64,000 nt of DNA from contig DAIOHD010000001.1 of NCBI GenBank assembly GCA_036744835.1, forward strand, positions 464,414-528,413, given 5' to 3'. Under the pieces are notes generated by a model that was given only the letters and a program-made list of their open reading frames with translations, was not told where the DNA came from and made no database searches. The position numbers and the translations under genes are program-made. Origin of the DNA: Candidatus Magasanikiibacteriota bacterium. Its GTDB lineage: Bacteria > Patescibacteriota > Patescibacteriia > Magasanikbacterales > GWA2-37-8. Numbering within the stretch: the stretch's first letter is position 1; every line of letters starts with the position of its first letter. Positions 56,642-57,153 of this stretch are shown one piece after another.

Positions 56642-56799
56642 ATAATATAGTAGAAATTAACTTATCCACTGTTTTTTAAATCAGGGACTTGATTTTTTTA
56701 TAAATTTAGTATATCATAATGAACGTTATTTTGTCTAATCCAAGCCAAAGACAAAATGGCGTAACTTTGCCAATAAAGGCAGAAATAATGGGCCGGTAG

Positions 56800-57083
56800 C
56801 CCCTCACCTATACCTTTATGTTTTACGTTTATCTTATAAAAAGTAAAATAGATGAGAGCACCTACATTGGCTATACAAACGATCTAAAAAGACGCTTGGT
56901 TGAACACAACAAAAGACTGAATAAGTCTACCAAGAACAAAGCGCCTTTTGAGCTCGTTTATTACGAAGCTTATAAAGAAATGGCTGACGCAAAACATAGA
57001 GAATTTAATTTAAAACGTTTTGCCAAAGCTTATCAACAGTTAAAACTACGCCTTAAGGACAGCCTAAAGGCATAGGTGAGGGG
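56800..57083 (+). mobile_element. GIY-YIG gene cassette bounded by 12-bp perfect inverted repeats, inserted at the 5' end of tRNA-Lys with an 11-bp duplication of the tRNA 5' end
   Basis: IR-L cccctcacctat (56800..56811), IR-R ataggtgagggg (57072..57083). Direct repeat GGGCCGGTAGC at 56790..56800 and at 57081..57091, the latter being tRNA-Lys nt 1-11. Confidence 0.5.
56818..57075 (+). CDS. GIY-YIG nuclease superfamily protein (UPF0213/YhbQ-like, 85 aa)
   Basis: MFYVYLIKSKIDESTYIGYTNDLKRRLVEHNK; the stop codon lies inside IR-R. Confidence 0.8.
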   Translation: MFYVYLIKSKIDESTYIGYTNDLKRRLVEHNKRLNKSTKNKAPFELVYYEAYKEMADAKHREFNLKRFAKAYQQLKLRLKDSLKA

Positions 57084-57153
57084 CCGGTAGCTCAGCTGGT
57101 AGAGCAATTCCCTTTTAAGGAAGAGGTCCCGGGTTCGAATCCCGGCCGGCCTA
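57081..57153 (+). tRNA. tRNA-Lys (TTT)
   Basis: GGGCCGG TA GCTC AGCTGGTA GAGC A ATTCC CTTTTAA GGAAG AGGTC CCGGG TTCGAAT CCCGG CCGGCCT A; one A-G mismatch at the top of the anticodon stem. Confidence 0.75.

Follow-up and report, generated by a model that had tools for sequence, protein, structure and literature searches.

Free-standing GIY-YIG homing genes, such as T4 segB in the T4 tRNA cluster (PMC2330249), carry a GIY-YIG domain, stand alone beside tRNAs, are present sporadically and show signs of preferential or horizontal inheritance together with their immediate flanks. Here we describe a unit that resembles them in these respects, a 291-bp cassette with a GIY-YIG nuclease gene directly 5′ of a tRNA-Lys gene in a 64-kb stretch (34% G+C) of a Candidatus Magasanikiibacteriota genome (contig DAIOHD010000001.1). 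This stretch is called the window, and all shuffles and motif counts at the locus refer to it. Judged from sequence comparison, the cassette belongs to a large family in Patescibacteria, the members of which enclose a minimal gene for an 84–85-aa protein of the Slx1/UPF0213 type in a terminal inverted repeat (IR) of ∼20 bp. We consider that it is probably a selfish homing-type cassette using the ends of tRNA genes as safe sites.

Unlike segB, the cassette encodes a protein of only 85 aa that lacks a DNA-binding domain and belongs to the Slx1/UPF0213 branch, not to I-TevI/Seg; it is closed by a terminal stem of 20 bp that covaries and is flanked by a copy of the first 10 nt of the tRNA, and it is chromosomal in Patescibacteria and essentially missing from viral contigs. 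In size, fold family and conserved core the protein is like the stand-alone UPF0213/Slx1-like proteins (BH0048, PDB 1zg2; EF2693, PDB 1ywl), described as ‘minimal GIY-YIG’ (PMC1564403). The stand-alone Slx1-like family is regarded as mostly vertically inherited and repair-related (PMC1564403), whereas the gene described here is all that its cassette carries, and the cassette is present in some genomes and absent from others and occurs several times per genome at RNA genes.

The second group of similar systems comprises the intervening sequences (IVSs) of bacterial rRNA genes, some of which carry an open reading frame (ORF; the 23S rRNA IVS protein), and the insertions found in Candidate Phyla Radiation (CPR) bacteria (PMC11270868). 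These are stem-bracketed units with the ORF in the loop, sporadically present in structural RNA genes, and the long terminal stem typical of an rRNA-type IVS is matched by the 20-bp stem of the cassette. Unlike an rRNA IVS, the window copy lies between promoter and tRNA with a duplicated tRNA start and replaces no helix loop; loop replacement was seen only at two loci of the family (L019 and L079). GIY-YIG ORFs in non-intron insertions of CPR rRNA genes were considered to be outside homing, in a study with no mention of tRNA linkage, stems or duplicates (PMC11270868). The original prediction, made from the window alone, held that UPF0213-type GIY-YIG proteins are not known to be mobile; this is true of the tRNA-linked architecture but, in view of these CPR insertions, not of all small GIY-YIG genes found with insertions.

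Islands that target tRNAs with an att repeat, and tRNA-targeting retrotransposons of compact genomes (PMC5006619), also use the tRNA as a safe site, are flanked by a tRNA repeat and leave the tRNA intact. The cassette differs from them in occupying the 5′ rather than the 3′ end, in its length of 291 bp and in having neither integrase nor reverse transcriptase; moreover, the att repeat of an integrase island is specific to one tRNA, while the repeat of the cassette is re-made for each local tRNA. With IS200/IS605 and REP/RAYT elements it shares the format of a very small single-gene unit whose ends are set by DNA secondary structure, and its end may base-pair with the target, as in hairpin-dependent elements (see the 4-nt covariation below). 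Unlike these elements, it has a GIY-YIG enzyme in place of an HUH tyrosine transposase and a single long stem that closes the whole cassette in place of subterminal hairpins, and gene-less dispersed copies are rare. Terminal IRs are shared with transposons and miniature inverted-repeat transposable elements, but a target-site duplication of fixed length is not (the repeats are of 5–11 nt or more, in tRNA-linked copies only). Neither the ribozyme core of a group I or group II tRNA intron nor a tRNA that needs splicing is present, and a survey of Patescibacteria tRNA introns makes no mention of GIY-YIG (PMC13011429). The full-text literature searched contained no description of tRNA-linked GIY-YIG cassettes, an absence that is no proof given that most subscription journals were outside its coverage. 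The cassette is best filed as a combination of features of free-standing homing endonuclease genes and stem-bracketed IVSs, its distinguishing trait being the specialised occupation of tRNA gene ends.

The cassette at the tRNA-Lys locus

The sequence GGGCCGGTAGC, nt 1–11 of tRNA-Lys(UUU), occurs at 56790–56800 and 57081–57091, i.e. with a spacing of 291. These are the only two copies in the window, also with one mismatch allowed (expected number 0.10; none of 100 shuffles reached two). The downstream copy belongs to a complete, surviving tRNA-Lys gene, and tRNA nt 1–10 are thus present on each side of the cassette. The sole ORF between the copies (56818–57075) encodes 85 aa, with ∼33 of the 291 nt falling outside it. 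The features of the locus are as follows.

56790..56799, plus strand: upstream (distal) duplicate of tRNA-Lys nt 1–10, comprising the 5′ strand of the acceptor stem and U8, A9 and G10
56799..56818, plus strand: left arm of the terminal stem, GCCCCTCACCTATACCTTTA (20 nt, 95%), ending at the A of the ATG
56818..57075, plus strand: GIY-YIG nuclease gene, 85 aa, UPF0213/Slx1-like, without a Shine–Dalgarno (SD) sequence
57065..57084, plus strand: right arm of the terminal stem, TAAAGGCATAGGTGAGGGGC, overlapping the stop codon and tRNA nt 1–4
57081..57154, plus strand: intact tRNA-Lys(UUU) (ARAGORN; Rfam tRNA 70.5 bits)
56800..57090, plus strand: the 291 bp missing in empty alleles (alignment to L081–L083); 56790–57080 is equivalent, given the 10-nt repeat
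56689..56717, plus strand: predicted tRNA-Lys promoter TTGATT-17-TATCAT (consensus scan 9/12), 5′ of the whole cassette
56751..56789, plus strand: variable leader (TAAAGGCA...), part of a 27-nt, 81% repeat
56066..56641, minus strand: Translin-family gene (Pfam 2.9e-16), divergent neighbour of tRNA-Lys(UUU), kept in many relatives

The 12-mer CCCCTCACCTAT at 56800–56811 (IR-L) lies 6 nt 5′ of the ATG, and its counterpart at 57072–57083 (IR-R) includes the TAG stop codon (57073–57075). The original prediction had placed the duplicate, both IRs, the ATG distance and the stop codon correctly, and two of its measures needed extension or trimming. The perfect 12-bp IR does exist, but its true extent is 20 nt with 19 of the 20 positions complementary (56799–56818 versus 57065–57084), reaching from the A of the ATG over the stop codon to tRNA nt 4 of the downstream copy. 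The single mismatch is missing in sister strains, the base being A in the window and in L149 and G in the other sister strains. Similarly, the 11-mer is found twice as claimed, but the unit duplicated across the family (21 cassettes) is nt 1–10; the 11th base of the window duplicate is common to the tRNA copy and the IR. Random recurrence of the IR, the outcome that was to count against a cassette, was not seen within the 64 kb, where the exact 12-mer is found solely as this one inverted pair. No second copy of the gene (tblastn of the protein) or of the CCCCTCAC-type motif (described below) was present elsewhere in the window.

Presence, absence and divergence of the cassette

The Translin-family gene and tRNA-Lys form a conserved divergent pair, and a metagenome scan with the translin-family protein produced 63 loci. 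The nearest relatives (translin 86–90% identical) have the same promoter block, cTTGATTTTTTT..TTAGTATATCAT, conserved alike at filled and empty sites, and an identical or near-identical tRNA. At the empty tRNA-Lys sites (L081–L083) there is no duplicate, no stem and no ORF, and the leader is 115–140 nt long. At L084–L086, also among the nearest relatives, the final ∼40 nt are all that is left of the cassette, directly next to the tRNA (...AAAGGCATAGGTGAG followed by the tRNA start GGGCC); the alignment of this remnant to the window cassette has p<0.0005. About 20 more distant relatives are empty as well, and the cassette is missing from most genomes with this neighbourhood. Filled sites are those of the window, the sister strains L147–L150, L001 and two loci with other variants of the cassette (L112 and L143).

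The search for cassette-free tRNA-Lys loci in relatives, which had been proposed along with the original prediction, was therefore productive, and the opposite outcome, an arrangement fixed at the locus with no empty sites, did not materialize. With empty sites common in close relatives, the idea that the cassette is a compact element, mobile or of the homing type, at the 5′ end of a tRNA is supported. Insertion exactly at the 5′ end is one of two equally valid placements, the other being after tRNA nt 10 with a 10-nt duplication.

Sequence divergence points in the same direction. Between the window and L001 the cassette has nucleotide identity of 92–97%, synonymous divergence (dS) of 0.29 and a ratio of non-synonymous to synonymous divergence (dN/dS) of 0.067; the respective values for the three flanking genes are 65–80%, 1.56–1.70 and 0.07–0.12, so that dS of the cassette is ∼5 times lower. 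At a tRNA-Ala site (L006 versus L011) the GIY-YIG proteins are 85–87% identical compared with 42–45% for the neighbouring genes.

Several loci illustrate how the cassette may have moved. Locus L021 carries two 100% identical units in tandem 5′ of one tRNA-Ala, the product that re-insertion into a restored tRNA would give. In one metagenome-assembled genome, the paralogues at tRNA-Ala(CGC) and tRNA-Val(CAC) each carry a repeat that fits their own tRNA. Other copies reside in RNA genes of different kinds. At L019 (2898–3550) a 291-nt cassette sits in the loop of a C/G-rich hairpin of RNase P RNA (Rfam 250.8 bits over the gene), while at L037, L050 and L078 (near 3001–3300) the right arm ends directly 5′ of the conserved RNase P GGAAAGUCC box, in or beside helix P3. 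At L079 (1–1160) the cassette is in the 3′ part of the 16S rRNA gene, a few dozen nt past CACACCGCCCGTCA, in what we take to be helix 44. Empty sites, remnants, low dS, the tandem and the copies in RNA genes together indicate invasion, decay and re-invasion. The locus thus shows two hallmarks of homing genes, presence/absence polymorphism at an otherwise conserved site and an element younger than, or incongruent with, the flanking genes. Cassettes of this kind would account for the insertions other than introns in rRNA and RNase P RNA genes of CPR bacteria, the nature of which was left open in PMC11270868, and the family offers a bacterial, DNA-level case of mobile elements of compact genomes using tRNA genes as safe havens.

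The variable leader at 56751..56789 is possibly a decayed remnant of the 3′ end of an earlier cassette. This idea is only partly supported by the alignments: the window leader aligns to the remnant-bearing leader of L085 (p ∼0.0015), whereas its match to the 3′ end of its own cassette is not significant (p=0.26). A weaker direct repeat (27 nt, 81%) extends 5′ of both tRNA-start copies. A 31-nt block just 5′ of the distal tRNA copy (56751–56781) is missing in L147, L148 and L150, whose GIY-YIG protein is identical.

Carriage by viruses or plasmids found little support, with only two weak partial matches in IMG/VR and only relatives of <41% identity in INPHARED and PLSDB; the one phage copy that was inspected is located away from a tRNA.

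A family tied to tRNA ends

Homologs were present at no fewer than 556 genomic loci (at least 556) among GTDB species representatives, and architecture was analysed in the best 80 loci, with 90 gene copies. We refer to the 21 cassettes with the end motif of the window as class I and to copies away from tRNAs, with ends ACCCCCACACC / GGTGTGGGGGT, as class II. In 35 of the 90 copies (39%) a tRNA on the same strand starts −10 to +105 nt after the stop codon; by our estimate from tRNA density, chance would account for well under 1%. The linked tRNAs are Ala (20), Val (6), Lys (2), Pro (2), Gly (2), Ile (1), Glu (1) and Cys (1). Three further copies (L060, L061 and L067) adjoin the 3′ end of a tRNA on the opposite strand, and one (L051) lies past the 3′ end of a tRNA of its own strand. 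In all three geometries the first base of the repeat coincides with the mature tRNA terminus.

The layout of a class I cassette is, in order, tRNA nt 1–10, CCCCTCAC, a variable arm, the ORF from ATG to stop, the complementary arm, GTGAG and the tRNA. In the 21 class I cassettes the upstream copy agrees with the local tRNA at 90–100% for nt 1–10, 57% for nt 11, 0% for nt 12 and ∼30% for positions −8 to −1, and the duplicate follows the local tRNA although nt 4–7 vary among class I loci. The mean longest flanking match is 8.4 nt in tRNA-linked copies, 4.7 nt in the other copies and 4.0 nt in displaced controls. Since copies away from tRNAs have no flanking repeat, the repeat is tied to tRNA ends and is no generic insertion footprint. 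Its length is 10 nt in most class I cassettes, 7–8 nt in L044 and L143, 5–8 nt in class II and 20–40 nt in the second subfamily described below. Between L006 and L011 the upstream copy is intact at nine of ten positions even though dS of the cassette is >1, which suggests either constraint or repeated renewal.

The terminal stem is the most general feature of the family. Stems at 66 loci have a mean arm of 20 nt with 4.6% mismatches, and nearly all loci are enclosed, whether tRNA-linked or not. The inner 10 stem positions are complementary at a rate of 0.96 within a locus versus 0.31 between loci. In an in-register alignment of 17 class I cassettes, 93.5% of cells are paired and 11 of the 20 pairs have changed on both sides, a level that none of 500 shuffles matched. 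At its outer four nt the left arm is complementary to the end of the tRNA, and these nt change with that end: GCCC/GGGC at tRNA-Ala, Val, Lys and Ile, CCCG/CGGG at a tRNA-Pro and CACC/GGTG at tRNA-His on the other strand. Fold-back priming, considered as a general origin of this 4-nt inverted extension, fits class I and the tRNA-Pro case and fails for the tRNA-His cases, and was dropped for that reason.

A second GIY-YIG subfamily has a different arrangement, in which the ORF reads into the tRNA and the stop codon TAG is U8-A9-G10 of the tRNA (L112, whole leader; L074, 3437–3760; L005, 2578–2900). The upstream tRNA copy of L112 reaches ∼nt 40, in the anticodon loop, with a 20-nt G+C hairpin in its D-loop; that of L074 has 23–24 nt, and L111 has an upstream copy without an ORF.

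ORF-less mini versions were also observed, with the layout tRNA nt 1–8 or 1–11, CCCCTC, a hairpin, GAG and the tRNA (L004/L012, ∼3250–3295; L030/L036, ∼3260–3320; L143, leader 565–690). Three of them (L004, L012 and L143) are capped by a GCGA tetraloop. These versions may have arisen from the cassette by deletion, or may represent its bare carrier.

The nuclease

The 85-aa protein matches the Pfam GIY-YIG domain PF01541 with E=1e-15. A profile of the family hits UPF0213 protein BH0048 (PDB 1zg2) with E=2.4e-10 and EF2693 (1ywl) with E=2.4e-07, and SLX1 (7wme) more weakly with E=1.6e-03; the first of these matches bears out the predicted UPF0213 type. An alignment of 28 homologs has 21 invariant columns, including the YIGY motif (Y16, G18 and Y19), R26, E29, N31 and E62, and Y3 and Y5 are nearly invariant. 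Because the core residues are invariant and dN/dS is low (the 0.067 of the window–L001 comparison, a sign of strong purifying selection), an active nuclease appears to have been kept by selection.

The protein consists of the catalytic domain alone, with no extra domain and no room for a separate DNA-binding domain. No integrase and no transposase (DDE, HUH, serine or tyrosine) is encoded in the 291 bp, in which the GIY-YIG gene is the sole ORF; an enzyme acting in trans from elsewhere in the genome is possible. The homologous proteins number 841, nearly all of 84–90 aa, and those with named sources are mostly from Patescibacteria/CPR. The widespread stand-alone UPF0213/Slx1-like nucleases, for which a 2006 survey could only predict a role in DNA repair (PMC1564403), would thereby gain a definite selfish function in one large clade at least.

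Transcript and predicted RNA fold

The sole good promoter-like site in the leader (56689–56717) is upstream of the distal tRNA copy, and neither an SD-like motif nor a −10 box was found in any of the 21 class I cassettes; in most of them the stem ends 0–10 nt from the ATG. With no promoter or SD sequence of its own and a conserved promoter upstream, the cassette would ride on the pre-tRNA. Six class II cassettes (e.g. L033, L040, L045, L060, L067 and L071) have no SD sequence and a TATAAT-like box 4–12 nt 5′ of the ATG, in the stem-enclosed region (20–45 nt before the ATG at 3001 or the equivalent position); a box so close to the start codon suggests leaderless translation.

The predicted minimum free energy fold of 56780–57157 has −116.6 kcal/mol. 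In this fold the distal GGGCCGG pairs with 57146–57152, the 3′ acceptor strand of the tRNA, and the stem 56799–56811 / 57072–57084 holds the proximal GGGC. This ‘interrupted tRNA’ topology is the minimum-energy structure in all 18 class I loci folded (18/18), on average 7.5 kcal/mol below the fold with an ordinary tRNA. An RNA-level stem that frees the tRNA from a shared transcript had been offered in the original prediction as the alternative to a mobile cassette; the two are in fact compatible, and stem and upstream duplicate both take part in the fold predicted for the co-transcript. Rfam searches found no intron or ribozyme family, either at the gathering threshold or at E≤1; what appeared at E≤1 was the tRNA and two weak, far sub-threshold matches to unrelated small-RNA models overlapping it. 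In our view, upstream tRNA fragments and ‘interrupted tRNA’ folds may plausibly mislead tRNA annotation and the interpretation of transcripts in Patescibacteria.

Proposed mechanism and alternatives

In the mechanism that we propose for a homing-type cassette, the element, having no promoter or ribosome-binding site of its own, would be transcribed from the tRNA promoter within the pre-tRNA. In the full transcript nt 1–4 of the real tRNA would be sequestered in the long stem and the tRNA 3′ acceptor strand would pair with the upstream duplicate, and the transcript would therefore resemble a tRNA interrupted after nt 9/10. The mature tRNA would be produced once the stem is cut by an RNase III-like activity, or refolds, and RNase P cleaves at the proximal +1; the released ORF RNA would present its AUG at the top of the stem. 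For homing-like spread the nuclease would cut an empty tRNA gene near the conserved junction between U8-A9-G10 and C11, and repair would then copy the cassette from the filled allele. At a new tRNA species the 10-nt duplicate might originate from template switching or from a staggered cut with an offset of one helical turn; the variation of repeat length among cassettes argues against a simple staggered cut. Recombination between the repeats via a circle or att sites, as the route to new tRNAs, was rejected by reasoning alone, because it should leave a chimeric tRNA or an upstream copy of the donor type, while the observed repeats match the local tRNA.

A number of observations weigh against this reading. 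Copies away from tRNAs have no flanking repeat (4.7 versus 4.0 nt), so the repeat is no generic target-site duplication, and we rejected that explanation on this ground. A catalytic domain of 85 aa without a DNA-binding module leaves sequence-specific homing unexplained. Mismatches in the stem, read on the sense strand, are 16 G.U and 18 A.C, without strand bias, and the same geometry of duplicate and stem is found where the tRNA is on the opposite strand. Both findings argue that stem and repeat have their role in the DNA, or are produced by the way in which the cassette inserts, and are not adaptations of the sense RNA; RNA-specific selection on the stem was rejected given the 16 versus 18 count. 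Part of the low divergence of the cassette could be due to ordinary homologous recombination in the conserved promoter and tRNA on either side, instead of to nuclease-driven homing. Jumps to new tRNAs are rare, given the age of paralogues that share a genome (dS >1). Finally, the presumed target is still present in the restored tRNA, and the L021 tandem suggests that there is no immunity.

The alternative that survives best, though we regard it as distinctly less likely than a homing-type cassette, is a hairpin-dependent DNA transposon. Here the Slx1-like nuclease would be a structure-specific transposase that cuts at the base of DNA stems, its own hairpin and the cloverleaf or acceptor stem of the tRNA in single-stranded DNA; the 10-nt repeat and the 4-nt IR extension would be footprints of the reaction and the RNA effects by-products. 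This would explain why the repeat begins at the mature tRNA end in three geometries (including L060, L061 and L067, and L051), why the four outermost left-arm nt vary in step with the tRNA terminus and why stem mismatches are strand-symmetric; the tandem re-insertion at L021 and the presence of SLX1, deposited as a structure-specific endonuclease subunit, among the nearest solved relatives fit as well. However, strand transfer is not known for any GIY-YIG enzyme, and 20-bp repeats ∼250 nt apart cannot extrude from duplex DNA, so that single-stranded DNA would be needed. Repeat lengths of 5–11 nt, and up to ∼40 nt in other subfamilies, misfit a fixed stagger, and copies away from tRNAs have no flanking repeats.

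A shape-reading nuclease has further consequences. The terminus of a mature tRNA is marked in DNA only by secondary structure, as the base of the acceptor stem in a single-stranded cloverleaf, and it is our speculation that this fits a shape-reading Slx1-like nuclease. We put forward tentatively, and with more doubt than confidence, the view that the cassette represents a new class of mobile DNA and, at ∼290 bp, the smallest autonomous element known, with a minimal Slx1-like nuclease that reads shape instead of sequence (its own hairpin and the end of the tRNA acceptor stem), an acceptor-strand mimic and a stem reaching 4 nt into the tRNA, and a transcript that, by switching between interrupted-tRNA and pre-tRNA folds, couples tRNA maturation to the release of a leaderless nuclease mRNA. 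If the nuclease is guided by shape, the 85-aa enzyme and its 20-bp stem would make a very small, tractable system for studying target choice by a mobile element.

Passive insertion of the IVS type is unlikely. It supposes that the stem is essential for excision by host RNase III, that spread occurs by transformation and ordinary homologous recombination, and that the GIY-YIG gene is a passenger, or a repair nuclease useful to the host that borrows strong promoters of RNA genes. The relatives in RNase P RNA loops and 16S rRNA do recall classical IVSs in helix loops of rRNA, the mean stem of 20 bp is close to the minimum for an RNase III substrate, ∼20 bp, and ORF-less GCGA-loop hairpins with a tRNA duplicate occur 5′ of tRNAs (L004, L012 and L143). 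Genomes that have more than one copy, at different tRNAs and each with a repeat that fits the local tRNA, nevertheless require real transposition beyond allelic recombination; strong purifying selection on a core-intact nuclease is at odds with a sporadic passenger gene, and the excess of G.U expected from selection at the RNA level is missing.

Even less probable, indeed very improbable, is a fixed, domesticated operon or leader in which nothing is mobile, the GIY-YIG protein has a tRNA-linked cellular role in processing or repair and the stem organizes a shared transcript. Such a role could be read into the co-orientation of the gene with the tRNA that it abuts in 39% of copies, the low dN/dS and the hint at an RNA link from a GIY-YIG/TrmH fusion (PMC1564403). 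It is largely refuted by the empty sites and decayed remnants in the closest relatives, and runs counter to the ∼5-fold lower dS relative to flanking genes, the absence of the cassette from most genomes sharing the neighbourhood and the copies in RNase P RNA and 16S rRNA genes, where a tRNA factor has no obvious use.

A tRNA intron (group I/II or archaeal-type) or an integrase-type island with an att copy of the tRNA 5′ end is scarcely credible: the predicted fold does resemble a tRNA interrupted after nt 9/10, and the cassette is flanked by a direct repeat of a tRNA segment, as is typical of integrated islands, but no intron or ribozyme matches even at E≤1, only ∼33 of 291 nt are outside the ORF, the complete downstream tRNA makes splicing unnecessary, the sole ORF is an 85-aa nuclease with no integrase, and the repeat changes with the local tRNA.

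Other observations

The Translin-family gene next to the cassette belongs to a family that is, to our knowledge, unusual in bacteria. At L079 a group I intron (Rfam 56.7 bits, 939–1158) lies a few dozen nt beyond the cassette in the 16S rRNA gene.

Beside the cassettes of L022 (3265–3360) and L066 (3270–3340) there are tRNA-Ala-like sequences that stop at the anticodon region and are not called by ARAGORN. They pass into ...CCCGATTT... together with the palindrome ATCGAGGAT(C/G)CTCGAT, and may be short insertions or pseudogenes.

Elsewhere in the window, on the minus strand at 52190–52620, diverged partial 5′ copies of tRNAs (to ∼nt 36) are found just upstream of tRNA-Gly(CCC) and tRNA-Thr(CGU), called by ARAGORN at 52492–52563 and 52189–52262, respectively. 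One of the partial copies is GCGGGATTAGTACATCGGTAGTATGTATCCTTCTCCC and the other GCCCCTTTAGTTCAGTGGTAGAACGATGGTATCGCG. Neither intron-aware ARAGORN nor Rfam (E≤1) reported a host tRNA or an intron for them; they may have been left by earlier insertions like that of L112, or be nested or unrecognized tRNA structures. The tRNA-Gly(CCC) gene is bracketed by a 13-bp stem, CCGCCGGCTTCGT / ACGAAGCCTGGCGG, and CCCGCC/GGCGGG motifs repeat close by.

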